Assembly (NCBI GenBank): GCA_021209525.1 | Contig: JAJOIF010000001.1 | Coordinates: 10,708-74,707, forward strand | Length of the DNA: 64,000 bases | Direction of reading: 5' to 3' | DNA from: Minisyncoccota bacterium | GTDB lineage: Bacteria; Patescibacteriota; Minisyncoccia; Phycocordibacterales; UBA1006 | In this document: positions 5,057 through 23,598 of the stretch, piece by piece | Position numbering within the stretch: the first letter of the stretch is position 1 | Layout of the letters: every line of letters starts with the position of its first letter | Translations under genes and position numbers: made by a program | Notes under the pieces: model-generated | Told to the model about the DNA's origin: nothing | Database searches by the model: none | What the model saw: the letters and a program-made list of their open reading frames with translations, nothing else

Positions 5057-6148
5057 ATGCATGATGAGCACGATATTATTCTCATAGATAAACCCAAGGG
5101 TATCACTTCGTTTGATGTTATTCGTCAATTACGCAAAAAATTACAGATACGCAAAATGGGGCATGCAGGCACCCTTGACCCGCTCGCAAGCGGGCTCATG
5201 ATTATTGGTGTAGAAAGTGGCACAAAAAAACTTGATACATATTTACAATTACCCAAGGTCTACTATGCAGAAATATTACTCGGCAAGAAAAGTGATTCAG
5301 GCGACCTTGATGGCACCATTATAGAGCGCACCCCTGTGCGAGAACCATTACATGACCGTGATATAGAACAGGCTCTTGATCAATTGCGTGGCACACATAC
5401 CTATAGCGTACCTGTGTATTCTGCAATCAAAGTAGACGGCAAGCCGCTCTACTGGTATGCACGCAAAGGCATAACACCGCCGCGTATTCCTGTCAAAGAG
5501 ATGACTGTGACCGAAGTGTCGCTTCTTGATAGTTATGCGTCAGATGCGTATTGGATAATCAAGGTGCGTTTTGCAGTTTCTCGTGGTACGTACATTCGTG
5601 TCCTTGCCGAAGCCGTAGGTGCAGCACTTGGTTATCCCGCACTCCTTGCAAATTTGCGCCGTACGCAGATTGGTCCGTATAATATTGCTCATGCTCAACA
5701 TATTGAAGAAATATGGTATACTCAAGATATTACTCGTATAAGCAATACACATCATATGATACATACACAATGGGAAAACTTGACCATCAATATCAAAGCA
5801 ACTGATATTGAATTGACCGACCCTATTCGCGACTATATTGAAAACAAAGTAACGCGTTTGGGTAAATTCTTGCAATCACAAGGAGGAGATATTTTTGTCT
5901 ATTTTGAAATTGCAGAAACAGCACATCGCAACAATGAAGAAACCTATCGCGCAGACTGCAAAGTCGTATTGCGCGGCAAGGATTTCTATGCGAGCGCTAC
6001 GGGACCTGATTACATGAAAGCAATTGACGAAGTAAAAGAAAAACTCTACCACACGATTCATCAATCAAAAGGCAAAGAAGCGTCACTCTTTTTGAAGGGA
6101 GCGCGTGCGCTTAAAAAATTATTCCGTTTCAATAATCAAGACTCATAA
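5057..6148 (+). CDS. truB: tRNA pseudouridine(55) synthase TruB catalytic domain fused in frame to a ribosome hibernation promoting factor (HPF/RaiA, short form)
   Basis: Residues 1-230 carry the TruB motifs LIDKPKGITSFDVI and GHAGTLDPLASGLMIIG and lack a PUA domain. Residues ~245-363 (LTINIKATDIELTDPIRDYIENKV...YRADCKVVLRGKDFYASATGPDYMKAIDEV) align with YfiA/HPF. There is no stop codon between the two parts. Confidence 0.75.
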   Translation: MHDEHDIILIDKPKGITSFDVIRQLRKKLQIRKMGHAGTLDPLASGLMIIGVESGTKKLDTYLQLPKVYYAEILLGKKSDSGDLDGTIIERTPVREPLHDRDIEQALDQLRGTHTYSVPVYSAIKVDGKPLYWYARKGITPPRIPVKEMTVTEVSLLDSYASDAYWIIKVRFAVSRGTYIRVLAEAVGAALGYPALLANLRRTQIGPYNIAHAQHIEEIWYTQDITRISNTHHMIHTQWENLTINIKATDIELTDPIRDYIENKVTRLGKFLQSQGGDIFVYFEIAETAHRNNEETYRADCKVVLRGKDFYASATGPDYMKAIDEVKEKLYHTIHQSKGKEASLFLKGARALKKLFRFNNQDS

Positions 6149-8731: not shown

Positions 8732-8806
8732 GATCCCGTAGTTTAATGGATAGAACATCAGCTTGCGGAGCTGACGATGCAAGTTCGATTCTTGCCGGGA
8801 TCACCA
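8732..8806 (+). tRNA. tRNA-Arg (anticodon GCG by hand folding), CCA encoded
   Basis: Cloverleaf GATCCCG/CGGGATC acceptor stem, TTCGATT T-loop and TTGCGGA anticodon loop. The anticodon assignment is less certain than the tRNA call itself. Confidence 0.7.
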
Positions 8807-8846: not shown

Positions 8847-8886
8847 CAACTAAAAAGCAGGTTAGTAATAACTTGCTTTTTAGTTG
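8847..8886. terminator. Strong hairpin immediately 3' of tRNA-Arg
   Basis: CAACTAAAAAGCAG / CTTGCTTTTTAGTTG forms a 13-bp stem. It lies at the left edge of the AT-rich island. Confidence 0.5.
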
Positions 8887-8906
8887 TAGTTTAATACAAC
8901 GATCTG

Positions 8907-8915
8907 TGCTATAAT
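8907..8915 (+). promoter_or_regulatory. Extended -10 element (TGCTATAAT) driving the HTH-hsdM operon, probably producing a leaderless transcript
   Basis: TGnTATAAT ends 6 nt before the GTG start codon at 8922. Confidence 0.4.
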
Positions 8916-8921
8916 ATATCT

Positions 8922-9128
8922 GTGAAAGACGAATCAAAAAAACTGGGTGAAAATCTCAGAAAAATCAGAACAAAAAAAGACATTACTCAAACAGGTCTTG
9001 CAGAGGCGTTGGGGGTTGATAAGTCTTTTATAAGTAATATAGAAAATGGAAAAACAAATCCAACTCTTTCAACCATTACTAGTATAGCCAAAGCTCTTGG
9101 TGTGTCATCTAATGAATTACTAAAATAA
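8922..9128 (+). CDS. XRE-family HTH transcriptional regulator (possible controller protein of the R-M operon)
   Basis: 68 aa containing TQTGLAEALGVDKSFISNIENGKTNPTLSTITSIAKALGV, a classic Cro/C1 HTH. Confidence 0.75.
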   Translation: MKDESKKLGENLRKIRTKKDITQTGLAEALGVDKSFISNIENGKTNPTLSTITSIAKALGVSSNELLK

Positions 9129-9132
9129 CTTT

Positions 9133-10716
9133 ATGAGTAAAGATAAAACAAATTTAAATACAACCAAAGAACAAGAGCGATCTGAGCTTCACCGTGCCAT
9201 TTGGCAAATTGCCAATGATCTTCGTGGCAGTGTTGACGGTTGGGATTTTAAACAATATGTTTTAGGAATACTTTTTTATAGATTTATCAGTGAAAACCTT
9301 ACAAATTACATCAACATAGACGAAAGACGATCTGGTAAAAAAGATTTTGATTACGCAACTCTATCAGATAAAGAGGCAGAATTTGGTCGTGCTGATACGG
9401 TAAAAGAAAAAGGTTTCTATATATTACCAAGTGAGCTTTTTGTAAATGTTCGTAAAAATGCCAGAAATGATGCAAACCTAAACGAAACATTATCATCTGT
9501 TTTTAATAATATTGAAAATTCTGCAAAAGGTTTTGACAGTGAAGATGATCTAAAGGGATTGTTTGATGACTTGGATGTGAACTCAAATAAGCTTGGTGGA
9601 TCGGTAGAAAAAAGAAATCAAAAACTTGTAAAGCTTCTTGAAGCAATTGGAGATCTTCGTCTTGGTGATTATGGAGACAATACTATCGATGCATTCGGTG
9701 ATGCGTATGAATTTCTAATGACCATGTATGCTTCAAATGCTGGTAAATCTGGAGGCGAATTTTTTACTCCTCAAGAAGTGAGTGAACTTTTGGCAGAAAT
9801 CACAACTGTTGGTAAAAAAGAAGTAAATAAAGTTTATGACCCATGTTGTGGTTCTGGTTCGCTTCTTCTTAAATTTGCAAAAGTACTTGGTAAAGAAAAC
9901 GTACGACAAGGTTTTTATGGTCAAGAAATAAACCTAACTACATACAATCTTTGTCGTATTAACATGTTCTTGCACGATATTAATTACAATAACTTTGATA
10001 TTGCTCACGGTGACACCCTTACAGACCCGAAGCATTGGGACGATGAACCATTTGACGCCATAGTTTCTAATCCTCCGTATTCAATCAAGTGGGATGGTGA
10101 CGCTAATCCTATTATGATTAATGATCCTCGTTTTTCTCCTGCTGGAGTTTTGGCTCCAAAAAGTAAAGCTGATTTGGCATTTACTATGCATATGCTTTCG
10201 TGGCTTTCTACCAGTGGAACGGCGGCGATTGTTGAATTCCCTGGAGTTCTTTATCGTGGCGGTGCTGAAGCAAAAATCCGTAAATATTTAATTGATAATA
10301 ACTATGTTGATGCAGTGATACAGCTCCCGCCCGATCTTTTCTTTGGTACTACAATTGCTACTTGTGTTGTTATCCTAAAGAAAAGCAAAAAAGATAATAA
10401 AACTTTGTTTATAGACGCTTCTGCTGAATTTGTGAGAGGTGGGAATAAAAACAAATTAAGTGGAGAAAATCGAAAGAAAATCCTTAATGCTTTTATTGAA
10501 AGAAAAGACATCGAACATTTTGCAAAAATCATAGACAACAAAGCTATCGCAGAAAATGATTACAATCTAGCAGTTTCTAGTTATGTGGAGCAGAAAGATA
10601 CGAGAGAGGTGGTGGATATAAAAGAGCTGAATAAAGAAATTGAGAGAATTGTAAAAAGACAAAGTGAGTTAAGGTCAGCAATTGATGAGATTGTTAATGA
10701 AATTGAAAATAAATAA
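9133..10716 (+). CDS. hsdM: Type I restriction-modification system DNA methyltransferase subunit HsdM
   Basis: 527 aa with the N-terminal HsdM_N region, the SAM motif DPCCGSGSLL and the N6-adenine motif IV VSNPPYS. Confidence 0.9.
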   Translation: MSKDKTNLNTTKEQERSELHRAIWQIANDLRGSVDGWDFKQYVLGILFYRFISENLTNYINIDERRSGKKDFDYATLSDKEAEFGRADTVKEKGFYILPSELFVNVRKNARNDANLNETLSSVFNNIENSAKGFDSEDDLKGLFDDLDVNSNKLGGSVEKRNQKLVKLLEAIGDLRLGDYGDNTIDAFGDAYEFLMTMYASNAGKSGGEFFTPQEVSELLAEITTVGKKEVNKVYDPCCGSGSLLLKFAKVLGKENVRQGFYGQEINLTTYNLCRINMFLHDINYNNFDIAHGDTLTDPKHWDDEPFDAIVSNPPYSIKWDGDANPIMINDPRFSPAGVLAPKSKADLAFTMHMLSWLSTSGTAAIVEFPGVLYRGGAEAKIRKYLIDNNYVDAVIQLPPDLFFGTTIATCVVILKKSKKDNKTLFIDASAEFVRGGNKNKLSGENRKKILNAFIERKDIEHFAKIIDNKAIAENDYNLAVSSYVEQKDTREVVDIKELNKEIERIVKRQSELRSAIDEIVNEIENK

Positions 10717-10717
10717 T

Positions 10718-11326
10718 ATGAAAAAAGGAATTATATATATAATGACAACTGCCGTTTCTGGTCTAATAAAAATCGGACAATCTGGAATAAATAATTTTCA
10801 AGAGAGAATGAGATTTCTTGAAGCCAATGGTTATTATAATGTTGTAGGATTAAAAAGATTTTTTGCAATTGAACTTGATGATTATGTAGATAAAGAAACT
10901 TTACTTCACGATATTTTTGAAAAACACAGAGTCGGTGAAAGTGAATTATTTGCTCTTGATCAAGAATTAGTCCGCCAACTACTCCTTTCGTTTGAAGGAA
11001 AAATCATTTACCCTGAAAATATTAACCAGGCGAAAGAATTTGATGAAGTTACAGAGATTAGAAAACAAGGAAAATTATTTAGTTTTTATAAAAAAGGATT
11101 AAAGAATGGAGATGAGATTCTCTTTATAAAAGACAAAAATATCAGTGCGAAAATTTGTGGAGAAAGAGAAGTAGAATATCAAGGTCAGATTTGGAAATTG
11201 TCACCGTTAGCATATAGGATCTTTGAACAACGTGGTGAGCTTAATACTAGTGGAGCTTATCAGGGTGCCAACTATTTTGAATACAATGGTAAAAAATTAA
11301 AAGATATTCCCGATAAAGTATTATGA
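10718..11326 (+). CDS. T5orf172-domain (GIY-YIG superfamily-like) protein embedded between hsdM and hsdS
   Basis: GIIYIMTT...GLIKIGQS...ERMRFLE...FAIELDD...LHDIFEKHRVGESELF follows the T5orf172 pattern. The start is 1 nt after the hsdM stop and the stop overlaps the hsdS start. Confidence 0.55.
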   Translation: MKKGIIYIMTTAVSGLIKIGQSGINNFQERMRFLEANGYYNVVGLKRFFAIELDDYVDKETLLHDIFEKHRVGESELFALDQELVRQLLLSFEGKIIYPENINQAKEFDEVTEIRKQGKLFSFYKKGLKNGDEILFIKDKNISAKICGEREVEYQGQIWKLSPLAYRIFEQRGELNTSGAYQGANYFEYNGKKLKDIPDKVL

Positions 11327-12528
11327 AAAAAAACCAATCCAAAATTGAAAAACTAATTTCAGAACTATGCCCTAATGGTGTGGAGTTTAAAATGCTTGGA
11401 GAACTAGAAGATGACAGTTTGATTAAACTTGGACGTGGAAATGTAATTTCAAAAAATGATATTTCTAATACTCCTGGTGATTTTCCTGTTTATTCCTCAT
11501 CAGCAAACGGAGAGGGAGAATTTGGAAGATATGGCAAGTTTATGTTTGATGACGAAAGAATAACATGGTCAATTGATGGTGGTGGTAGATTTTTCTATAG
11601 GTTCCCACACAAATATTCTGTAACAAATGTATCTGGGTGGTTAAAAGTAAATGATAATAATGTAATAAATACGCGTTATCTATATTTCGTTTTATCAAAT
11701 GCTTGGCTAACAAAAGTTTTTGATTATACAAAAAAAGCTCATCCTTCAGTAATTAGAGAGGAGTACAAAATCCCCATCCCACCCCTTGCAATACAAGAAG
11801 AAATTGTAAAAATTCTTAATAGTTTTACAGAGCTAGAAGCAGAGCTAGAAGCAGAGCTAGAAGCAAGAAAGAAGCAATATGAACATTATCGTGCACAACT
11901 CTTAACATTCCCAGAGGGGGGGGTACAATGGGTTAGGCTCAGTGATATTGGCACTATGATAAGAGGAAGTGGATTACAAAAAAAAGATTTTACAGAAACC
12001 GGAGTCGGATGCATTCATTATGGTCAAATTTATACATACTACGGGACTTTTGCAGATAAAACAAAATCATTTGTGTCTCCAGAATTGGCAAAGAAATTAA
12101 AGAAAGCTCAAAATGGTGACGTATTAATTGCTGGTGTCAGCGAAAATATTGAAGATGTATGCAAACCTTTGGGTTGGCTAGGTGGTGAAATTTGTATAAG
12201 TGGCGACATGTTTGCATTTCGTCATAATCAAAATACTAAATTTTTAACATACTTATTACAGACTCCGAATTTTCAAAAGTATAAAGAGAGATTTGCTCAC
12301 GGGACTAAAGTAATCCGAGTAAAAGTGGATAAAATTTTGGACTACAAAATTCCTGTGCCGTCACTTCAAGAGCAGGAACGCATCGTTTCAATCCTCGATA
12401 AATTTGATGCACTTGTGAATGATATTTCAATCGGTTTACCTGCCGAACTTAAGGCACGCAGGTCGCAATATGAGTATTATCGGGCAAAATTACTAACTTT
12501 TAAACCTGTAGAGCGTATGGCGATATAA
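11323..12528 (+). CDS. hsdS: Type I restriction-modification specificity subunit HsdS
   Basis: Two target recognition domains separated by a central conserved region (ELEAELEAELEARKKQYEHYRAQLLTF), plus the C-terminal conserved repeat (ELKARRSQYEYYRAKLLTF). Confidence 0.85.
   Translation: MKKNQSKIEKLISELCPNGVEFKMLGELEDDSLIKLGRGNVISKNDISNTPGDFPVYSSSANGEGEFGRYGKFMFDDERITWSIDGGGRFFYRFPHKYSVTNVSGWLKVNDNNVINTRYLYFVLSNAWLTKVFDYTKKAHPSVIREEYKIPIPPLAIQEEIVKILNSFTELEAELEAELEARKKQYEHYRAQLLTFPEGGVQWVRLSDIGTMIRGSGLQKKDFTETGVGCIHYGQIYTYYGTFADKTKSFVSPELAKKLKKAQNGDVLIAGVSENIEDVCKPLGWLGGEICISGDMFAFRHNQNTKFLTYLLQTPNFQKYKERFAHGTKVIRVKVDKILDYKIPVPSLQEQERIVSILDKFDALVNDISIGLPAELKARRSQYEYYRAKLLTFKPVERMAI
11830..11865 (+). 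repeat. Perfect 12-bp x3 tandem repeat (GAGCTAGAAGCA) inside hsdS encoding (ELEA)x3
   Basis: Read directly from the sequence. It is in frame within the hsdS central conserved spacer region. Confidence 0.9.
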
Positions 12529-12603
12529 ATACGCTCTACAGGGAAGTTAGTTTACATTGGTCTTGCTAATATAAACAAAATAGTATAAAATGTTTACATT
12601 GAT

Positions 12604-13782
12604 ATGAATAATATAAACCAATCAAAAATAGGACGATATATACAGCAAAAAGAAGGATATAAATCCTTTACGCCTTTTGAATTTCCACCAAAGGATGGTT
12701 TTGTTATTAGTACTAAACTTTACAAAAAACACGAGGAAGCTATTAGACTCGTTGGCAAATTAGATGGTATTACGCGCTTACTTCCAGATAAGGATTATTT
12801 TACTTTTATGTTCGTTGTAAAAGATGCAACATATTCAAGTCAAATTGAAGGGACAAAAGCAACCATGCAAGATGCAGTAGCCGCGCCGATAATTGAAGAA
12901 AAAAATCGCAAGGCTAGTGATGTGGATGATATTGAACATTATATCAAGGCAGCCAATTATGGGATTGAGAGAATCAAAGAATTTCCAATTTCACTTCGTT
13001 TTATTCGTGAATTGCATGAAAAACTCATGACTGACGCACGTTCTACTCATCATGCATATCCGGGACAATTTAGAACTTCTCAAAACTGGATCGGTGGTAA
13101 GACTCCTGCTGATGCTTCTTTTGTTCCACCAGCGCCAGATGATATGAAAAAATCTCTTGATGATCTGGAAAAATTCATTCACAAAAACGATGATTATCCC
13201 TCTTTGATTAAGGCGGGACTTTTGCATGCACAATTTGAAACTATTCACCCGTTTACTGATGGTAATGGACGCACTGGGCGTATACTTATCGCAATGTATA
13301 TACACTATGCAGGACTTTTGGAAGAGCCGGTGTTGTATCTTTCTAGTTATTTCAAAAAGTATCAAAAACTCTACTATCAAAAATTGCAAGGGTATCATGA
13401 TGATGAATCCGATATTGACGGTTGGCTCCTGTTTTTCCTTGAAGGAATAATTGAGATAGCAAACTCTAGTATTGAAACATGTACAAAGATCACAGAACTT
13501 CGCGATCGGGATTTTGCAAAGATGCAAAAGCTTGGTAAAAAGTCCGCCGAGTCAACACTTGAAATTGTTCGCAAGTTATATAGCCAGCCAATTGTAGGGG
13601 TAGCAGAAATAATGAAATGGACAGGATTTACTGCTCCTGGTGCATACAAGGTAATTGAAAGACTCAGAGATTTAAAAATTCTTGAGCCTCTTGGTGATGC
13701 AGATTATGATCAAAAATATGTCTATGCCGATTATTATGAATTATTTGATGAGGTGTTTAAAGAAGGTCGCAAAAAGAAATAA
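12604..13782 (+). CDS. Fic/DOC family protein (putative AMPylase-type effector) between hsdS and hsdR
   Basis: Canonical Fic motif HPFTDGNGRTGR within IHPFTDGNGRTGRILIAMYI, a Fic_N-like N-terminus and a C-terminal winged-helix-like tail. Confidence 0.85.
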   Translation: MNNINQSKIGRYIQQKEGYKSFTPFEFPPKDGFVISTKLYKKHEEAIRLVGKLDGITRLLPDKDYFTFMFVVKDATYSSQIEGTKATMQDAVAAPIIEEKNRKASDVDDIEHYIKAANYGIERIKEFPISLRFIRELHEKLMTDARSTHHAYPGQFRTSQNWIGGKTPADASFVPPAPDDMKKSLDDLEKFIHKNDDYPSLIKAGLLHAQFETIHPFTDGNGRTGRILIAMYIHYAGLLEEPVLYLSSYFKKYQKLYYQKLQGYHDDESDIDGWLLFFLEGIIEIANSSIETCTKITELRDRDFAKMQKLGKKSAESTLEIVRKLYSQPIVGVAEIMKWTGFTAPGAYKVIERLRDLKILEPLGDADYDQKYVYADYYELFDEVFKEGRKKK

Positions 13783-13784
13783 TT

Positions 13785-16700
13785 ATGACTAAAACCAACA
13801 AATACAATTTAGTTGCAGAAAATACACAAAGCACGGTTGTCGCCGAGTATGTTTCTGATGTCAAAAGAGTTTCGCAATATCAGAGCGAAGATGCTTTAGA
13901 AAAAGCTTTTATTCAGCAACTAGAATCTCAGGCATATGAATATTTAAATATTACTTCTGAAAATGATCTTATTCTTAATCTACGCAAACAACTAGAAAAA
14001 TTAAATAGTTATACTTTTTCTGATACAGAATGGGAAAGATTTTTTACAAGCGAGCTAGCAAATCCAAATCAAAGTATTGAAGAAAAAACCGCTACTATCC
14101 AAGAAGATAGCACCAAAATATTAAACAAAGATGACGGTACTTTTAAAAATATTGATTTAATAGACAAGAAAAATATTCATAACAATAGTCTGCAAGTTAT
14201 CAATCAATACACAACAGAAGACGGACAAAGATCTAATCGTTATGATGTGACGGTATTGGTAAATGGATTGCCACTTATTCATATTGAATTAAAACGCCGT
14301 GGAGTTGCTATTCAAGAAGCATTTAATCAGATAAATAGATATCAAAGAGAGAGTTTTTGGGCTTCAAGTGGTCTTTTTGAGTATGTGCAATTGTTTGTTA
14401 TCTCTAACGGCACACATACGAAATATTACAGTAATACAACCAGATCGCAGCACATTAAAGAAGCTCAAGAGGGTTCTAAAAATAAAGGCAAGAAAACAAG
14501 CAATAGCTTTGAATTTACGAGCTGGTGGGCAGATGCTACTAATCGCCCTATTACTGATCTAATGGATTTTGCAAAAACATTTTTTGCAAAACATGCGATT
14601 TTAAATATACTGACGAAGTATTGTGTATTTACGACTGATCGTCTATTGCTCGTGATGCGACCGTATCAAATTGTTGCAACTGAAAGAATTTTAAATCGCA
14701 TCGAAGTAAGTACAAATTATAAAAAGCTTGGCACTACTGAAGCAGGTGGCTATATTTGGCATACCACAGGATCTGGAAAGACTCTAACGAGTTTTAAAAC
14801 TGCACAATTGGCAAGTAAATTGTCATATGTCGATAAAGTGTTGTTTGTAGTTGATCGTAAGGATTTGGATTATCAGACAATGAAAGAGTATGACAAGTTT
14901 GAAAAAGGTGCGGCAAACAGTAATACCAGCACTTCAGTTTTAAAGAAACAGCTTGAAGACTCAAATTCTCGAATAATTATAACCACTATCCAGAAGCTTG
15001 ATAGATTTATTGCGAAAAACTCTGGGCATACTATTTTTGATGGTCATATCGTAATTATTTTTGATGAATGCCACCGATCACAATTTGGTGAAATGCATGC
15101 AGGAATTGTTAAGGCATTTAAAAATTATCATTTGTTTGGATTTACTGGAACTCCGATATTTTCTAAAAATGCTTCAGCTGGTGGTAGACCCGATTTTAAA
15201 ACCACAGAGCAGGCTTTTGGTGAGAAATTGCACACTTATACAATAGTTGATGCTATTTCTGACAAAAATGTTTTGCCGTTTAAGGTTGATTATGTTTCTA
15301 CGGTTCGTGAAGCGGAAAACATAGAAGATGCGAAAGTAAAAGATATTGATCGTGAGGCAGTTTTATCAGCACCCGAGCGTTTAGAAAATATTGTTCGCTA
15401 TATTCGTGAACACTTTGATCAAAAAACCAAACGAAATAGTTTTTATAAAATCCAAGACAGAAGGCTGGCAGGATTTAATTCTATATTTGCAGTTTCTTCC
15501 ATTGATGTAGCTAAAAAATACTATCTTGAATTTAAAAAACAGTTAGCGGATGAACCAAGTGATAAAAAGTTAAAGGTTGCCACAATATTTAGTTTTGGGG
15601 TAAATGATGAGGATGCAGATGGGATGATTGATGAGAATTCCGAAGATACCAGTGGTCTTGATGTAAGCTCTAGAGATTTTCTGGAAAGTGCAATTAAAGA
15701 CTACAACAAAATGTTTGGAACCTCTTATGATACGTCGTCTGATAAATTTCAAAATTACTATAAAGATGTAAGTGAGAAAGTGAAGAAAAGAGAAATTGAT
15801 ATTTTGATTGTGGTTAATATGTTTTTGACTGGGTTTGATGCAACTACACTTAACACGCTTTGGGTAGATAAAAATCTTCGTTTACATGGATTATTGCAAG
15901 CATATTCAAGAACGAATCGTATTTTAAATAGTGTTAAAACTTTTGGAAATATTGTTTGTTTTAGAAATTTAGAAAAAGCTACCAATGAAGCAATCGCACT
16001 CTTTGGAGACAAAGAAGCTGGTGGAATTGTATTACTTAAAGCATATGAGGATTATTACAATGGGTATAAAGATGGCGATAAAGAAATACGAGGATACAAG
16101 AGCCTTGTAGATGAATTGCTTGAAAAATTCCCCGTTGGAGAAAGAATTGTTGGAGAACAAAATCAAAAAGACTTTATAAAGTTATACGGAGCGATTTTGA
16201 GAGTGAAAAATATTTTGACTACTTTTGATGAATTTACTGGTAATGAAATATTATCTCCTCGTGATGTGCAGGATTATCACAGTATGTATATCGATCTATA
16301 CAATGAATTCCGCAAAACTGATGATTCTGAAAAAGAAAATATCAATGATGATATTGTCTTTGAAATGGAGCTTATTAAGCAAGTCGAGATTAATATTGAT
16401 TATGTACTAGGTCTTATTAAGAAATACCATGAGGATCATGTTTTGAACAAAGAGCTTCTCGTGGATATTAATAAAGCGATTGATTCGAGTGTGGAATTGC
16501 GTAATAAAAAAGATTTAATCAATCAGTTTATTACTTCTCTTGATGTTCATTCTATTGTTGATGAAGATTGGCAAAAATTTGTAGAAGAGAAAAAAGTCCA
16601 AGAATTAGAGCAAATTATTGAAACTGAAAATCTTGATCCTGAAGCTACATATAAATTTATACAAAATGCTTTCAGGGACGGAAATGTGCCAACAACAGGA

Positions 16701-16853
16701 ACGGCGATTAGTAAGGTTTTACCGCCAGTTTCTAGGTTTTCTCCTACTGGTGAAAGAAGTCAAAAAAGAGAAAGTGTATTGAATAAATTAACTAAATTTT
16801 TTGAAAGATTTTTTGATATTTCTGGAGGTAAATTTACATCTAATGAAAATTAA
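13785..16853 (+). CDS. hsdR: Type I restriction enzyme endonuclease/translocase subunit HsdR
   Basis: 1022 aa with an N-terminal nuclease region, SF2 helicase motifs (GSGKT Walker A and the DECH box IIFDECHRS) and a C-terminal HsdR domain. Confidence 0.9.
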   Translation: MTKTNKYNLVAENTQSTVVAEYVSDVKRVSQYQSEDALEKAFIQQLESQAYEYLNITSENDLILNLRKQLEKLNSYTFSDTEWERFFTSELANPNQSIEEKTATIQEDSTKILNKDDGTFKNIDLIDKKNIHNNSLQVINQYTTEDGQRSNRYDVTVLVNGLPLIHIELKRRGVAIQEAFNQINRYQRESFWASSGLFEYVQLFVISNGTHTKYYSNTTRSQHIKEAQEGSKNKGKKTSNSFEFTSWWADATNRPITDLMDFAKTFFAKHAILNILTKYCVFTTDRLLLVMRPYQIVATERILNRIEVSTNYKKLGTTEAGGYIWHTTGSGKTLTSFKTAQLASKLSYVDKVLFVVDRKDLDYQTMKEYDKFEKGAANSNTSTSVLKKQLEDSNSRIIITTIQKLDRFIAKNSGHTIFDGHIVIIFDECHRSQFGEMHAGIVKAFKNYHLFGFTGTPIFSKNASAGGRPDFKTTEQAFGEKLHTYTIVDAISDKNVLPFKVDYVSTVREAENIEDAKVKDIDREAVLSAPERLENIVRYIREHFDQKTKRNSFYKIQDRRLAGFNSIFAVSSIDVAKKYYLEFKKQLADEPSDKKLKVATIFSFGVNDEDADGMIDENSEDTSGLDVSSRDFLESAIKDYNKMFGTSYDTSSDKFQNYYKDVSEKVKKREIDILIVVNMFLTGFDATTLNTLWVDKNLRLHGLLQAYSRTNRILNSVKTFGNIVCFRNLEKATNEAIALFGDKEAGGIVLLKAYEDYYNGYKDGDKEIRGYKSLVDELLEKFPVGERIVGEQNQKDFIKLYGAILRVKNILTTFDEFTGNEILSPRDVQDYHSMYIDLYNEFRKTDDSEKENINDDIVFEMELIKQVEINIDYVLGLIKKYHEDHVLNKELLVDINKAIDSSVELRNKKDLINQFITSLDVHSIVDEDWQKFVEEKKVQELEQIIETENLDPEATYKFIQNAFRDGNVPTTGTAISKVLPPVSRFSPTGERSQKRESVLNKLTKFFERFFDISGGKFTSNEN

Positions 16854-16861
16854 AAAATTAT

Positions 16862-18328
16862 ATGAATACTGTTTGTATATTAAAAAATTTTCTAGAGTAC
16901 GAGCCATTACCTGAATTAATGCAAGGTGCAGGAATAGCAATTATTACACTGTTAATATCATTTGCTATTGGTATTTTGATACATCATTTAGGAGATAAAG
17001 AACGCAAGGGTGGTTTTCTAGATATTCATGTAGCGTTAGATTATGTTTGGCGTTTTAAACAATCCTTATTTCTAATAGTAATAGTCGTTGTATCACCATT
17101 TTTATTTGCATTTGAAAGCTTAAATATAAAAGCTTTGGTTTTCATAGTTTGGTCTATTTCTATTACTTTATTAATTTATATTAATATTCGATTATATTAC
17201 TGGGTTAAAGGAGATAAAGATGATTTTAGAAAAAAATATCTTTCAAATTTTCCAAAATCACCTAGAGATAAAATTGTTTCTTGGGGAGATTTTTGGAGTA
17301 CCGATATTAATAAGGGTAAAAGATTTACTGAGCCAGATTTTTTCTCAATTTTCTCTAAAGAAATTGATGCATTGTTAATCTCAAATAATAAAGAAGATTG
17401 GGAAACAGTGTTAAAGTTATTAGATGATTTTGTAGATAAAATTGAACTTAGAAATAAAACTTTTCTTGTAGTACTTGATGAATTCTTTCCGAAAATTCTT
17501 GAATGGCATTACTTTCTATGGGAGAAACAATTTACTCAGTATTCAATCGAATTAGGAAAAGAAAATCCTAAAATTGATACATATTTATTTCAAATAGATC
17601 AGCTTATAGATAAAATAATTAAATTTATTACCAATAGTGCGCTAACTACAGGTAATGCCTTTTCATATTTTGATAGACTAAAAAATCATATTGAAAAATA
17701 TGAAGACAAAAATATAGTAGGAGCTAAATTGACATATGAATATATACAACAAATTCCTATTTATGAAGATTGTTTAAATTTGACTTCAAAATCCCCAGAA
17801 GCTTATGATATCTGGAATCATTATTTCCCAGAATCATGGAAGATAACGATTAGTAATCTTGAGAAAAATAAAATATCATGGATTTGGTATGATAGATTTT
17901 TAAATTGGTCTCAATCTAGGATTTGGAATGAAAAAGAAGAATGGGATAAAGATTTAGATGAGGTCGCAAAATCACTTTTCCCAGAGGTTGATCCTATAAC
18001 GTGGGCAAAAATTTATACTTTCGTAATTAGACCGTTTTCAAACGACAGAATGAAATCAATTATAGAAAGTAAGGTAAATTTTGGTTATGTGGGACGCGTA
18101 TATTCTGGTTGGGGCGATGATATGGAAACTAGTTTTGCAAAAAAACAGCAAGAAGAACTTGAAAATACAATTAAGCTAGCTAAATATTTATTCGGTAAAG
18201 TTTTTACAAAGGAAAATATCGACAATTGGATAAAAGAACTTGAAAAATTAGAGTATCTTAAAGATTCAGATGAAAATAGAAAAAAGGAATACTGGAAAGC
18301 CTTACTGGGTAAACTAAAAAATAATTAA
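16862..18328 (+). CDS. Hypothetical membrane-anchored protein (3 N-terminal TM helices plus a ~380 aa cytoplasmic helical domain) immediately downstream of hsdR
   Basis: TM segments are predicted from hydrophobic stretches. No domain was recognised. It lies on the same strand, 9 nt after the hsdR stop. Confidence 0.5.
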   Translation: MNTVCILKNFLEYEPLPELMQGAGIAIITLLISFAIGILIHHLGDKERKGGFLDIHVALDYVWRFKQSLFLIVIVVVSPFLFAFESLNIKALVFIVWSISITLLIYINIRLYYWVKGDKDDFRKKYLSNFPKSPRDKIVSWGDFWSTDINKGKRFTEPDFFSIFSKEIDALLISNNKEDWETVLKLLDDFVDKIELRNKTFLVVLDEFFPKILEWHYFLWEKQFTQYSIELGKENPKIDTYLFQIDQLIDKIIKFITNSALTTGNAFSYFDRLKNHIEKYEDKNIVGAKLTYEYIQQIPIYEDCLNLTSKSPEAYDIWNHYFPESWKITISNLEKNKISWIWYDRFLNWSQSRIWNEKEEWDKDLDEVAKSLFPEVDPITWAKIYTFVIRPFSNDRMKSIIESKVNFGYVGRVYSGWGDDMETSFAKKQQEELENTIKLAKYLFGKVFTKENIDNWIKELEKLEYLKDSDENRKKEYWKALLGKLKNN

Positions 18329-18334
18329 TATAAT

Positions 18335-18622
18335 TTACCCCTTAATCTTAACTCTACTATTTATCAAGGATAGTTCACTACTAATACACTCTAGCACTGA
18401 TCTTTGCTCTAACGCTGAACCCTCTTTCAATACAAATTTAGCATAGTCTTTCAGGTCTATCGTTTCAATTTTTTCAGTTTTCTTTTTACCTAAAAACATC
18501 GCTTGTAATTTTTTAAATTTCTGAATTTCACTATTTAATTTAGAGGTAAGCTGTACTTTATTTAAACTTAAGGTATCAATCATTTTTAGAAGTGCTTCTA
18601 TAAGGTCTGGAAGGTACCCCAA
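18335..18622 (-). pseudogene. C-terminal fragment of a large serine recombinase (coiled-coil tail only)
   Basis: DLKDYAKFVLKEGSALEQRSVLECISSELSLINSRVKI aligns with the tail of the 31783-32262 recombinase fragment ([36 protein letters not shown]). The catalytic domain is missing. Confidence 0.5.
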
Positions 18623-18638
18623 AATTCAGACACCTTTT

Positions 18639-19693
18639 CTACGTACGTTCATCATATATCAGCACTTCTTTCTCTGCAAATTGTAGGGGCGCCATACCCA
18701 ACACAGAGTGTATCCTTCTTCGATTGTAATAGTTGATGGTCTTGTAGATTTCAGCTACAAGCTCACCAAGTGTTTCAAATCGATTAGGATCTCCAAGGTC
18801 TAGCTTGAACCCTTTGTAAAAGGATTCTTGATAGCCATTCTCCCAGGGACATCCAGGCCTACTCATGGATTGTTGTATACCTAGTTTCTGAACAAGAGCA
18901 GTGTAGTCTTTTGAGGTATACTCACTTCATTGGTCTGAGTGAATGATTCTCGGTGGTGCACGATGGAGTACAGCATTAAGTAATGCATTCATCACAAGCT
19001 GTGTAGCATGAGTGGTCAGAATAGCTACCCCTACAATCTCTCTGGTATATACATCAATGACCCTAGTAGGATAGATCCATTTCCCTTGAAACTTGAGGTA
19101 GGTGAAGTCAGATGCATAGATATCTCCCCTCCCACGAGGTGTCTCAAACAACAAGAGATTTGAGAAGATACTGTCTTTTGTCTTGTATACAAAGGGTTTC
19201 TTGGTGTATCTACGATATGGCTTGATACCAAAGATCTTCATGACTCTAAGTATTCGTTTCTTGTTGATTTTCAAGTGGAGTGCAAGACGCTTGTGGCCAT
19301 ATCCTGGATGTTCACGTAACACTTCTTCAATCATTTGCTTCGTCCTCCAGTCTTTAAGAGGTTGCTTGTGTTGATAGTACTGATGGGTTCGTTTGATACC
19401 TATGCGAGTACCATCTATACTTAGGCTCTTGAGGGCCCCTTTTTAGCCTCCATAGACATACGAATGGTAAGTTCTCCAATCAATCTCTTTAACTCTTCAT
19501 TCTCCTTCTTGAGCTTATTGTGAACTAATACACTCACTGAACCCTTGGCTTTGTTCCCAAGCCATGAGTAGATCGTAACAGTACTCACTCCAATATTCTG
19601 TGCTGCTTGGGCAACGCTGATACCTTGATGTTTGATACGGTTAATAGTTTCTTCTTTGATTTCTTTTGAGATTTTGAATTTCTTTTTGGACAT
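18639..19693 (-). mobile_element. Degenerate IS3-family insertion sequence. orfA (19421-19693) is intact, but orfB is N-terminally truncated and split by an in-frame TGA (18927-19334 plus 18639-18866)
   Basis: OrfA has an HTH plus a leucine zipper (IS3/IS911 type). The OrfB pieces carry DDE-integrase motifs (IIHSDQ, GCPWENGYQESF, YNxxRxH). The orfA/orfB overlap is lost. TGA is a genuine stop codon here because prfB is present. Confidence 0.7.
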
Positions 19694-19815
19694 ATATGTA
19701 TTCTATATTAATTAATAATTACATAGAATAGTTGTCTGAAGAAAGGGGTACCTTTCTCACCTAATAAAAACACCCCGCATGATGTATACGGGGTGTGGTT
19801 ATTAAGCAAATAACC

Positions 19816-20609: not shown

Positions 20610-20705
20610 ATATAAATTATCTCGTCAATTTTTGTAACATTGCGGAGCTGAGAAACATGTTGCAGGTATACAAAAACCGCCACCATGTGACGGTTTCTGT
20701 GTATG

Positions 20706-21108
20706 TGGAGATGGGCGGAGTCGAACCGCCGTCCATGAACATCCCTGAGCAACATCTACGAGTGTAGATGTATTTTTTATATCTATGCAAATAGATAATC
20801 TCAACACCGCCACCTTTAAAATACTCGAAACAGTAGCAGTGTCTATCTTGATGATTTAAAAGATATGTTCAAGAGGCGCATATCTTCGAGTGTAGGTATA
20901 TGACATCACGATCCTCTCTCTACACACAAGAGGCGCGACGACATCGCATTATATTATGCGAATGCTGGCGTAAATCCAAATGCTGAAGCATAAGGGCTTA
21001 CTACTTTCTTTGCGTTTGCACTTAAAGAAGTGTGGTCGATTTACGAGTATACCACAACTCGACCCGCATTACTCAGGGGGATTGTACATGTCGAAGCCAG
21101 ACATCCCC
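20706..21108 (-). ncRNA. ssrA: tmRNA (SsrA)
   Basis: The 5' end GGGGATGTCTGGCTTCGACATG matches the tmRNA consensus GGGG.UG.UUCUGG.UUCGAC. The 3' end GGTTCGACTCCGCCCATCTCC-A forms a tRNA-like T-arm and acceptor with the 5' end. The internal reading frame GCA AAC GCA AAG ... GCA TTC GCA TAA gives the tag ANAKKVVSPYASAFGFTPAFA. smpB is adjacent. Confidence 0.75.
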
Positions 21109-21125
21109 AATGATATTGTTAAAGA

Positions 21126-21569
21126 TTATCGTTTCATCAGACGCTGCATATCGCGCTCGGCATCTTTTTGCTTGAGCTTTTCACGTTTGTCGTGTTTTTT
21201 AAGTCCACGAGCAAGCGCAATTTGTGCTTTGATCTGACGCCCTTTATTATACAATGATATGGGTATTAAAGTCAAACCTTGTGTATGCTTTGCTTTGATC
21301 ATGCGATCAATTTCTGATTTCTTGAGCAAGAGTTTTCGTCTGCGATACGGATCATATGTGGGCGGAGTATTATTTTGCTGATAGGGAGGAATATGTGCCT
21401 TTACCAAAAATACTTCATTATGAGAGTCAATAGTTGCATATGCTTCCTTGAGTGACCCTTGTTGGTTTTTAAGTGATTTTACTTCAAAACCATGAAGCAC
21501 AATACCTGCTTCAAAGGTATCTATAATTTCATATTGAGATCCTGCATATTTGTTCTGTAATAATGCCAT
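21126..21569 (-). CDS. smpB: SsrA-binding protein SmpB
   Basis: LLQNKYAGSQYEIIDTFEAGIVLHGFEVKSLK...YDPYRRRKLLLKKSEIDR and a basic C-terminal tail. The start was trimmed to the MALLQNK methionine. Confidence 0.85.
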   Translation of the reverse strand: MALLQNKYAGSQYEIIDTFEAGIVLHGFEVKSLKNQQGSLKEAYATIDSHNEVFLVKAHIPPYQQNNTPPTYDPYRRRKLLLKKSEIDRMIKAKHTQGLTLIPISLYNKGRQIKAQIALARGLKKHDKREKLKQKDAERDMQRLMKR

Positions 21570-21681
21570 AGATATAAGACTATTATACATATTCTGCAAA
21601 GAATAGCATGTAGTGGTAAAAATTCTCTTTTTTGGTATAATACACCTTACAAAATCATTTAATCGTAATTTATTTATATAC

Positions 21682-23598
21682 ATGACTACACCGAAAAAAC
21701 CAGAAAAGAACAACAAGAAAAATAAAAATACCGGCATTATGCGTTTTTTCCAAAAATTTGGTGGCGTCGTGCTTATTTTTGTAGGATTACTTGCCCTTTA
21801 TACATTACTGAGCGATCAAGAAAAAAGTCTCTTTTCTCGACCAGAACAAGCAACCATCTCAGAAGTAGCCCAAGCAGTCATTGATGGATCTGTGCAAAGT
21901 ATTGTGGTTCGTGGCGACAAACTTGAAATCATTCTCGATGACGAGAGCGTGCTCCAATCAAAAAAAGAAGTAGAAAGTTCGCTCTCTACAACACTTGCCA
22001 ATTATGGTGTAACACCTGAGCAATTGAGTGTCGTGAATATTGATGTGCGTAGCGAAAGTGGATTCTTGTATTGGTTTTTGAATATCTTGCCAATGCTCTT
22101 TCCGCTCCTCTTTATCTTGCTCTTCTTTTGGTTTATTTCAGGGCAGCTCAAAGGTGGAGGTATGAAAGCATTTAGTTTCGGTGATTCAAAGGCTCGTGTA
22201 ACAGACCCAGAAAAACAACGCATTACCTTTGATGATATTGCCGGCAACAAAGAAGCAAAACAAGAACTTCTTGAAGTAGTAGACTTCTTGCGCAATCCAA
22301 AGAAATTCTTGGCCATTGGTGCTGAAATTCCCAAGGGTGTACTCTTGATGGGGTCACCAGGAACAGGGAAGACACTTATGGCGCGCGCTGTTGCGGGAGA
22401 AGCAAAAGTACCGTTCTTTCACTTGTCAGGATCTGAATTTGTGGAAATGTTCGTAGGGGTTGGGGCAAGTCGTGTGCGCGATCTCTTTGATCAAGCAAAA
22501 AAAGCATCACCCGCTATTATCTTTATTGATGAAATTGATGCCGTAGGGCGTGCTCGTGGTACTGGTACCGGTGGAGGTAATGATGAGCGCGAACAAACTC
22601 TGAATCAAATTCTCGTTGAAATGGATGGTTTTGAAGCTAATGAAAAAGTTATTGTTATGGCGGCAACAAATCGCGGCGATGTATTGGATCCAGCGCTCTT
22701 GCGCCCAGGTCGTTTTGATAGACGCGTTATGCTTGATTTGCCTGACCGCAAAGACCGTCTTGCAATTCTTGAAATTCATGCACGCAAAAAACCTCTCCAC
22801 GACGATGTAGATCTCACTGTCATTGCTGAGCGGACACCTGGTTTTTCTGGGGCTGATTTGCAGTCGCTCATGAATGAATCTGCTATTTTGGCAGCACGCG
22901 AAGATAGAACTACGATCAGCCAGTGGGATCTCGTGCGCTCTATTGAAAAAGTAATGATTGGTCCTGAGCGACAATCACATTTGCATACTGATCATGAGCG
23001 TCGCGTTGTTGCGTATCACGAAGCAGGTCATGCTATCATTGCTTCAGTCTTGCCTCATGCAGATCCCGTGCACAAAGTCTCAATTGTTGCTCGTGGGCGC
23101 GCTGGGGGATACACTCTAAAACTTCCTCTTGAAGAAAAGAAACTCCAAACCAAAAAAGAATTCCTTGATGATATTGCAATGAGTCTCGGGGGATATGTTG
23201 CAGAAAAAATGATTTTTGATGATGTCACTACGGGGCCTTCTAATGACTTACAAGTATCGACACGCCTTGCGCGTAGTATGGTAACGAGATGGGGAATGAG
23301 TGATACAATTGGCCCCATTGCTCTTGAGGGCGATGAGGGTCGCGCACTCTTTGGATCTGGGGTGTATGGCAATGAACATTCTGACAAAGTCCAAGCCGAC
23401 ATCGATGCAGAAGTATCACGCATCATAAAAGACGCTCTCGCTCTTGCAGAGCAAACACTGGTAACACACAAAGACGCACTTGATGCTGTCGCGCAAGGTC
23501 TTCTTGATCAAGAAACACTTGAACAAGATGACTATGACACTATTATTCGCAAGTTCGGTATTATTCCCAAAAAGAAAACAGCAGAGTCTATTGCATAA
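21682..23598 (+). CDS. ftsH: ATP-dependent zinc metalloprotease FtsH
   Basis: Two TM helices, an AAA module (GPPGTGKT-like [17 protein letters not shown] and the SRH) and the HEAGH zinc motif (YHEAGHAI). Confidence 0.9.

Follow-up and report, generated by a model that had tools for sequence, protein, structure and literature searches.

Genes for further defenses placed within Type I restriction-modification (R-M) operons are a published principle, several instances of which resemble the locus described here. In EcoprrI-PrrC (hsdM-hsdS-prrC-hsdR), the additional gene encodes PrrC, an ABC-ATPase anticodon nuclease that resides almost exclusively inside Type I loci. In the RRDM island of enteropathogenic Escherichia coli (EPEC), arranged as RptR-hsdM-hsdS-DarTG2-hsdR, the hsdS-hsdR junction was proposed to be a recombination hotspot for defense cargo (PMC12255303). 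The Type I R-M cluster of the Vibrio cholerae island VPI-2 contains TgvAB, which was proposed to complement that cluster by attacking modified phage DNA (PMC11411939), and the "guilt-by-embedding" candidates (PDCs) of PADLOC were derived from genes residing within BREX, DISARM and Type I R-M systems (Payne et al. 2024). SoFic is a published stand-alone, single-gene defense system (Millman et al. 2022) and is among the commonest of all defense systems, so that its presence beside an R-M system is to be expected. Here, we analyzed a stretch of 64,000 nucleotides (nt) of contig JAJOIF010000001.1 from a Minisyncoccota bacterium of the Patescibacteriota, referred to below as the window, in which positions 8922 to 18328 hold a Type I R-M operon interspersed with three genes foreign to R-M: a T5orf172-like gene belonging to the PADLOC candidate family PDC-S57, a SoFic-type fic gene, and a gene for a membrane protein designated ORF7. 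The explanation that we consider probable is that of a mobile type IC R-M module, the junctions of which collect independent defense cargo acting in parallel rather than as one coupled system.

The resemblance of the window to each of these systems is partial. As in EcoprrI-PrrC, the genes of the Type I operon share one orientation and a gene foreign to R-M separates hsdS from hsdR; unlike prrC, this gene encodes a Fic AMPylase and has a predicted promoter of its own, most of its homologs lie away from Type I loci, and the nearest orthologous operons lack it. With the EPEC island, the window shares a small regulator in first position and a toxin-type defense system between hsdS and hsdR, but its cargo is SoFic instead of DarTG2, its regulator is an HTH_3 protein resembling R-M controller proteins, and two further slots are filled. 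A second nuclease system lies inside the Type I cluster in V. cholerae as well; TgvAB, however, is a GmrSD-like system of two proteins and of demonstrated activity, whereas PDC-S57 is a single uncharacterized protein in the hsdM-hsdS slot. The Fic protein has in common with SoFic from Shewanella oneidensis its class II type, its inhibitory and canonical catalytic motifs and the winged helix-turn-helix (wHTH) at its C-terminus, yet it belongs to a distant clade, and its locus leaves no room for AS1, the antitoxin of 47 amino acids (aa) that was reported downstream of Sofic in E. coli; binding of SoFic to its own promoter is experimentally documented in S. oneidensis, whereas the evidence for the window clade is comparative. 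PDC-S57 is itself one of the guilt-by-embedding candidates. ORF7 fits the class of unexplained riders but differs in not being included in PADLOC 2.0 and in being appended after the last gene of the operon rather than embedded in it.

Seven open reading frames (ORFs), all on the plus strand, were confirmed within 8922-18328 in the order helix-turn-helix (HTH) regulator, hsdM, T5orf172-like gene, hsdS, fic, hsdR and ORF7, in agreement with the gene order, coordinates and shared orientation given by an initial annotation of this DNA. The same annotation had described the genes as overlapping or near-abutting. With intergenic gaps of 4, 1, -4, 75, 2 and 8 nt, this applies to most junctions [the T5orf172-like gene, in particular, is packed between its neighbors with a 1-nt gap to hsdM and a 4-nt overlap with hsdS] but not to the hsdS-fic junction, the 75-nt gap of which holds the conserved promoter of fic. 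The three domain assignments were also upheld. The Fic call is backed by Pfam matches to Fic (7.8e-21) and Fic_N (4.7e-17) and by a full-length match to the PADLOC SoFic model (2e-105; residues 18-382 aligned with model positions 5-359 of 361). The T5orf172-like protein, for which the ATG at 10718 was taken as the start [the ORF list has an earlier TTG at 10682], barely exceeds the threshold of Pfam MUG113 (23 vs 22.3 bits), its homologs match PF10544 (T5orf172), and it matches the PADLOC PDC-S57 models PDLC05040 (2.4e-54) and PDLC05041 (3.2e-34, over residues 13-212). Lastly, the membrane protein predicted after hsdR corresponds to ORF7, which has three hydrophobic N-terminal segments and no specific fold match.

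We then compared the window with 179 other loci, in a census combining single-sequence tblastn with Pfam and PADLOC scans of the immediate neighbors; since genes in these loci were called crudely, as greedy longest ORFs, and one contig is represented by several duplicate loci, the census is approximate. The closest copy of the operon, L001, encodes HsdM, HsdR and ORF7 proteins 90%, 93% and 89% identical to those of the window. It has no fic gene, its hsdS overlapping hsdR, and its hsdM-hsdS junction (slot 1) is occupied by an unrelated gene of 192 aa without known domain; ORF7 follows hsdR (slot 3) as it does in the window. In L167-169 (HTH 72%, HsdM 83%, HsdR 80% identity), slot 1 harbors a PDC-S57 protein 85% identical to that of the window, the hsdS-hsdR junction (slot 2) is empty, and slot 3 contains, in L167, a convergent terminase-like gene. 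In L174/175, slot 1 likewise holds PDC-S57, slot 2 an IS200-like gene and slot 3 an NmeDI_C protein; neither these loci nor L167-169 possess fic or ORF7. The content of all three junctions thus varies across five backbone variants, and none of the other 179 loci combines Fic, PDC-S57 and ORF7. Two of the three cargo genes occur in other arrangements in L095 and L037. L095 (2330-6646), a Saccharibacteria contig, has a SoFic of 83% identity directly ahead of a PDC-S57 of 72% identity, with one further gene and then an hsdM-like gene behind them; nowhere else outside the window are two of the cargo genes direct neighbors.

These comparisons bear on the larger claims of the initial annotation, which had seen in the operon a composite defense module, coupled to R-M in the manner of PrrC and not yet described as a unit. 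Defense genes, or candidates for such genes, do lie inside a Type I operon, but the comparisons do not support one PrrC-like coupled unit: the orthologous loci (L001, L167-169 and L174/175) lack the embedded genes or differ in them, and conservation of Fic between hsdS and hsdR, a check that the annotation had proposed, was not borne out, Fic being absent from the close operon copies and only 15 of its 79 homologs lying near any hsd gene. As to novelty, the exact trio is found in no other locus of the census, but the embedding of defense genes in Type I operons has been published. PrrC-like coupling was ruled out as the leading interpretation because the cargo varies between orthologous operons and its homologs occur in many other contexts.

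In L001 and L167, serine recombinases adjoin the R-M module. Both loci also contain, beside the module, a protein of ~500 aa with a weak Terminase_6C match [L167 11947-13455 and L001 10369-11838, both on the minus strand; 49% mutual identity]. The terminase-like gene and the large serine recombinases hint that the R-M module travels on a phage-like or satellite-like element.

The Fic protein aligns with solved SoFic chains from the PDB at ~1e-24, the alignment reaching residue 365. Its catalytic motif, HxFx(D/E)GNGRxxR, is intact (HPFTDGNGRTGR at residue 215), as is the class II inhibitory motif (S/T)xxxE(G/N), which reads SSQIEG at residue 78; a degenerate Fic was ruled out, both motifs being canonical. 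Tested as an equivalog of S. oneidensis SoFic (NCBIfam NF046030), the protein scored 135.5 bits, under the cut-off of 550, which places it in a distant SoFic clade. A scan limited to one genome per species returned homologs at 79 loci (49-86% identity), spread over numerous lineages of the Patescibacteria and a small number of other phyla. Similarity to any of HsdM, HsdS or HsdR was present within ~8 kb at 15 of these loci, none being detected at the other 64 (~80%), and Pfam scans revealed heterogeneous neighbors, among them hsd genes, GmrSD, HNH, other methylases and housekeeping genes. The M-S-Fic-R order of the window recurs only in L150; the other Type I-associated arrangements are R-Fic-M (L128, L140-142) and M-Fic. 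No partner similar to AS1 was found: only 2 nt separate fic from hsdR, and clustering of the ORFs downstream of fic in the 79 loci yielded no conserved small protein. The proximity of hsdR, 2 nt behind, indicates that it is probably co-transcribed with fic. By these comparisons, fic appears to be a self-contained, autonomous cassette.

The region preceding fic points in the same direction. Some 65 bp upstream of its start are conserved in ~50 of 60 loci irrespective of the sequence further upstream, and the segment 12550-12603, like its counterpart ahead of fic in L088-L166, appears to travel with fic regardless of the locus. Within it, we predict a near-consensus promoter with a -35 element TTGCTA (12563-12568) and a -10 element TATAAA (12584-12589), flanked by operator motifs. 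The putative operator is an 8-bp motif, GTT[T/G]AYAT, present in three copies of which the middle one is inverted. Its position 4 shifts in concert at all three copies, 25 loci being of the T-type and 22 of the G-type, and in 47 of 47 loci the operator type is tracked by residue 345 of Fic, a Pro in T-type loci and a Gln in G-type loci; the window Fic has Pro (P345). The next-best covarying columns, 344, 343 and 349, all belong to the same C-terminal "TAPGAYK" stretch (residues 343-349). On the tree of Fic proteins, the two operator classes are interleaved, with within-class distances of 0.19-0.20, a between-class distance of 0.207 and ~10 parsimony switches, which argues that the association is not a clade artefact. 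The operators are probably bound by Fic's own C-terminal wHTH. This agrees with a 2026 preprint, according to which the SoFic dimer of S. oneidensis attaches to the initial 100 bp of its promoter, as judged from co-elution with promoter DNA, its relative CccR is an autoregulator, and SoFic AMPylates switch I of EF-Tu. Autoregulation of SoFic is therefore already known; the operator and the residues that read it are not described in the SoFic literature examined. A consensus promoter scan returned promoter-like sites no more numerous than in shuffled sequence, and the promoters proposed herein are accordingly based on cross-locus conservation rather than on that scan. A similar scan with a terminator consensus identified no plus-strand terminator between the operon genes.

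The left junction of the Fic insertion lies close to the end of hsdS. The window HsdS diverges from those of L001 and L167 directly after "...LLTF", and on the hsdR side the difference is confined to the first four codons. At the left junction lies a perfect 14-bp inverted repeat (Table 1), which is not part of the region traveling with fic and may represent either a hairpin resembling a terminator or a scar of recombination.

PDC-S57, the occupant of slot 1, belongs to a family for which more than 2,100 matches were retrieved, the best 120 being 73-92% identical to the window protein; a 100% identical protein is on record from a Candidatus Pacebacteria metagenome-assembled genome. Tyr7, Lys-Ile-Gly18-20, Arg30 and Glu76 are invariant in the family and include the Tyr, Arg and Glu characteristic of GIY-YIG nucleases. 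Fold comparisons matched SLX1, CcrM and the RAMA domain of MPND, and by its fold PDC-S57 appears to join a GIY-YIG nuclease to a RAMA-like DNA-binding domain. RAMA stands for "restriction enzyme-adenine methylase-associated". GIY-YIG-RAMA fusions are mentioned in the literature as uncharacterized candidate Type IV nucleases sensing N6-methyladenine (m6A), although the reading of m6A by RAMA is disputed. Of five family members sampled for their context, three (L167-169, L174/175) occupy the hsdM-hsdS junction of this type IC backbone; of the other two, one precedes an SNF2/DUF4391/methylase system and one is found between DUF6680 and GmrSD. Overall, Type I genes are near PDC-S57 in 6 of 14 loci. 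A literature search on T5orf172 and Type I R-M brought up no paper that connects the two. A smaller and rather doubtful possibility is that PDC-S57 reads the adenine-methylation state written by the flanking genes, in which case it would work as a genuine partner of the Type I methyltransferase; by analogy with TgvAB, we propose that it could act against modified phage DNA.

ORF7 has no match in Pfam, PADLOC or NCBIfam and no enzymatic motif. In its AlphaFold model (AF2; mean confidence score, pLDDT, 90), the three hydrophobic N-terminal segments are helical. None of 62 full-length homologs carries a Pfam domain, and the few with a named source are from Patescibacteria. A profile search expanded the family to 691 representatives at 50% clustering, nearly all of 470-530 aa, with a subset of ~320 aa (P0216, P0233 and others) lacking the membrane part. 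In distant relatives (L033, L037, L043, L045 and ~20 others), the membrane part and the soluble helical domain are apparently separate ORFs, or the soluble domain occurs alone. The context of ORF7 was studied at 87 loci, 65 of which had a callable upstream neighbor. This neighbor is on the same strand in 57/65 loci, within 50 nt in 35/65, and is a recognizable defense gene in ~27-31 of the 65 (~40-48%). The preceding genes include Type III Res, HsdR of two families, Type IIG enzymes, Type II and III methylases, Cas4-like DUF2779, PifA/KAP, GmrSD, the SIR2-like PDC-S65 and MvaI; Type I genes were detectable near ORF7 in 8 of 85 loci. All-against-all clustering of upstream and downstream neighbors gave only clusters of five or fewer and hence no conserved partner. 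Large serine recombinases lie beside ORF7 in L001, L006/7 and L065. From these contexts, ORF7 seems to behave as a rider without evident promoter behind diverse defense operons rather than as a Type I-specific component, and we take it to be an accessory or independent defense-island protein.

The R-M backbone itself looks intact and EcoR124-like (type IC), judging from the presence of all expected domains together with the NPPY, GSGKT and DECH motifs and from 12-bp repeats in hsdS that are a hallmark of type IC systems. The profile matches of HsdR are full-length (HSDR_N 1-197/198; EcoR124_C 1-260/260), with the Walker A motif GSGKT at residue 329 and DECH at residue 427. The central conserved region of hsdS contains three perfect tandem copies of CAGAGCTAGAAG (11828-11863), encoding three LEAE units. 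In EcoR124-type enzymes (EcoR124I/II), the copy number of such repeats sets the length of the spacer in the recognition site, so that slippage at 11828-11863 could switch specificity. HsdS is only 41-49% identical to its counterparts in operons that are otherwise 80-93% identical. The regulator at the head of the operon, a position kept in L001 and L167, counts the controller (C) proteins C.AhdI (1.2e-8) and C.BclI (2.3e-8) among its nearest solved structures and is, by its sequence, similar to R-M controller proteins in size, fold family and position. The extended -10 element of the putative operon promoter, TGCTATAAT, ends 6 nt ahead of the GTG start of the regulator, and a "TTTAATACAAC" core as well as the -10 are partly conserved upstream of the HTH homolog of L167 (two sequences compared).

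The operon block is compositionally foreign. The guanine-plus-cytosine (GC) content per gene is 0.28-0.37, compared with 0.42 in the flanks, and falls directly after the tRNA-Arg gene. Between this tRNA gene and the operon promoter, an 18-bp near-perfect inverted repeat (8847-8886) overlaps the start of the C-box-like palindrome and may act as a tRNA terminator or belong to the regulatory region. Downstream of ORF7 lies a decayed IS3-family element, in which the Pfam domains HTH_Tnp_1, rve and rve_3 are each on a separate ORF fragment (three fragments). No convincing direct repeats of the att type were found to bound the island. Outside the island, the translation of a 363-aa ORF (5057-6148) reads as an apparent fusion of a TruB-like pseudouridine synthase N-terminus to an HPF/RaiA-like (hibernation factor) C-terminal part. 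The coordinates of all features are compiled in Table 1.

Table 1 Features of the R-M island and its borders in the window.
Feature	Position	Strand	Description
tRNA-Arg(GCG)	8732..8806	+	ARAGORN; Rfam tRNA 70 bits; left edge of low-GC island
Putative operon promoter	8883..8915	+	GTTGTA-N6-TACAAC palindrome (8883-8900, C-box-like) and extended -10 TGCTATAAT (8907-8915)
HTH_3 regulator, 68 aa, GTG start	8922..9128	+	First operon gene; Pfam HTH_3 7.6e-19; PADLOC HTH_VI 4.6e-18, Control_protein 2.5e-15
hsdM, Type I m6A DNA methyltransferase subunit	9133..10716	+	N6_Mtase 3.8e-116; HsdM_N; TIGR00497 781 bits; NPPY at residue 313
PDC-S57, 202 aa, slot 1	10718..11326	+	Predicted N-terminal T5orf172/GIY-YIG-type nuclease domain and C-terminal RAMA-like DNA-binding domain
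hsdS, specificity subunit, two target-recognition domains	11323..12528	+	Methylase_S 3.4e-35 in 2 stretches; PADLOC Specificity_I 3.6e-95
Perfect 14-bp inverted repeat	12505..12542	+	CCTGTAGAGCGTAT-N10-ATACGCTCTACAGG; spans hsdS stop codon; left junction of Fic insertion
SoFic promoter and operators (predicted)	12550..12603	+	GTTTACAT at 12550-12557 and 12592-12599; inverted copy ATATAAAC at 12569-12576
SoFic-type class II Fic AMPylase, 392 aa, slot 2	12604..13782	+	N-terminal inhibitory helix, Fic core, C-terminal wHTH
hsdR, restriction and translocase subunit, EcoR124 (type IC) family	13785..16853	+	HSDR_N, SWI2_SNF2, T1R_D3-like, EcoR124_C; TIGR00348 586 bits
ORF7, 488 aa, slot 3	16862..18328	+	Uncharacterized membrane-anchored all-helical protein; lowest GC in block, 0.278
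IS3-family insertion sequence, decayed	18592..19773	-	54-nt imperfect terminal inverted repeats (inverted repeat I1); transposase fragmented
tmRNA gene (ssrA)	20705..21108	-	ARAGORN; Rfam RF00023 142 bits; right edge of variable region
smpB (putative)	21126-21737	-	Next to tmRNA gene; named from ORF translation alone

In the explanation that we favor, an intact HTH-hsdM-hsdS-hsdR operon would reside on a horizontally acquired island of a Candidatus Pacebacteria (Patescibacteria) chromosome, as suggested by the low GC content, the tRNA and tmRNA flanks, the insertion sequence remnant and the serine recombinases of L001 and L167, and its three junctions would serve as cargo slots filled independently in different relatives. 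Going by their families, the C-protein-like HTH regulator would control the operon promoter, HsdM2S would methylate the host DNA, and HsdR would cut unmethylated incoming DNA. PDC-S57 would most likely provide a second nuclease acting on DNA, maybe a modification-sensing, Type IV-like one catching phages that escape Type I restriction. SoFic, expressed from a sigma-70-type promoter of its own with three operators, would by homology be an auto-inhibited AMPylase that, once activated, modifies EF-Tu and stops translation, leading to abortive infection. These layers would act in parallel as co-inherited defenses, there being no sign that the R-M complex silences them. Several points weigh against this picture or parts of it. 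All gene functions considered here were assigned by homology or fold. PDC-S57 has no Pfam match to RAMA at the sequence level, the assignment coming from the fold alone. EF-Tu as the target of the window Fic is an extrapolation by analogy, given the score of 135 against a cut-off of 550 bits and the ~1e-24 alignment to solved SoFic chains. The location of three of five sampled PDC-S57 genes between hsdM and hsdS could reflect a real dependence on HsdM and HsdS instead of co-travel. Finally, some enrichment of Fic near Type I genes (15/79) is real, and a facultative functional link may exist, for SoFic with the probably co-transcribed hsdR.

It might be argued that the trio forms an integrated backup set, kept latent under HsdMSR and freed by a phage anti-restriction protein. 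The co-orientation and tight packing of the seven genes would suit such a set, as would the use of the very junction occupied by PrrC and by EPEC DarTG2, the occurrence of the Fic clade in or next to Type I loci at an above-chance frequency (~15/79) and the adjacency of Fic and PDC-S57 near an hsdM-like gene in L095. We nevertheless regard coupling of this kind as very unlikely. The trio recurs in none of the other 179 loci, Fic is missing from every close operon copy, has a promoter and operators of its own and mostly occurs outside R-M loci, and ORF7 is found behind a variety of systems (Type III, Type IIG, PifA-like, SIR2-like and others). PrrC, in contrast, hardly ever occurs outside Type I systems, a distribution shared by neither Fic (15/79), ORF7 (8/85) nor PDC-S57 (6/14 loci), and no PrrC model was among the PADLOC matches of the seven window proteins, the three cargo proteins included. 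Independent cargo on a mobile type IC module thus remains the reading that we prefer, within which the nature of two of the riders can be debated.

PDC-S57 could be a selfish, free-standing homing-endonuclease-like gene comparable to phage Seg, spreading by cleavage of alleles that lack it. Its size of ~200 aa, its GIY-YIG-type domain followed by a DNA-binding fold, its position wedged exactly between hsdM and hsdS, its presence in some operon alleles and replacement in L001, and the 73-92% identity of the best 120 of more than 2,100 matches, suggestive of recent horizontal spread, are all compatible with this view. Yet the family occurs in several unrelated contexts (the SNF2 helicase system; DUF6680/GmrSD), which is unexpected for a site-specific homing enzyme, and all of these are defense islands; RAMA folds are no known homing-endonuclease module, and PADLOC curators retained the family after mobilome functions had been filtered out. 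A homing gene is, on balance, unlikely. ORF7, for its part, may be no immunity protein at all but ordinary cargo, or a protein with a maintenance or membrane function, at the ends of Patescibacteria mobile islands. That it adjoins large serine recombinases in L001, L006/7 and L065, that about half of its upstream neighbors are not recognizable as defense genes, that it is devoid of enzymatic motif and fold match, and that RHS toxins or housekeeping genes are found in some of its contexts speak for this alternative, which we hold to be possible though not probable. Conversely, ORF7 abuts, on the same strand, the last gene of diverse restriction and abortive-infection (Abi) systems, the gap of 50 nt or less in 35/65 loci suggests co-transcription, and a proportion of ~40-48% defense neighbors greatly exceeds any background that would be plausible in a small genome. 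The more specific proposal that the ORF7 family represents a new membrane-anchored immune component of Patescibacteria, a phage-entry sensor or abortive-infection effector positioned behind many restriction and Abi systems, is put forward as a tentative and rather doubtful suggestion.

As a composite system, the operon matters little, in that it adds a further example of defense genes stacked in a Type I R-M operon. The covariation of operator and recognition helix, on the other hand, provides a sequence-level readout of SoFic autoregulation, previously documented in one species only. Two leads appear worth keeping, the GIY-YIG-RAMA nuclease and the ORF7 family. The recognition of PDC-S57 as a GIY-YIG-RAMA fusion gives a methylation-state-sensing hypothesis to a PADLOC candidate that was previously without one. 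The ORF7 family is sizeable, unannotated and consistently found behind defense operons, making it a reasonable candidate for functional screening; if its proposed role in immunity is true, it would add a membrane-level layer to unrelated restriction and Abi systems. More generally, a conserved type IC backbone with three slots is a natural scaffold for finding defense cargo in Patescibacteria, the immune repertoires of which are poorly known.

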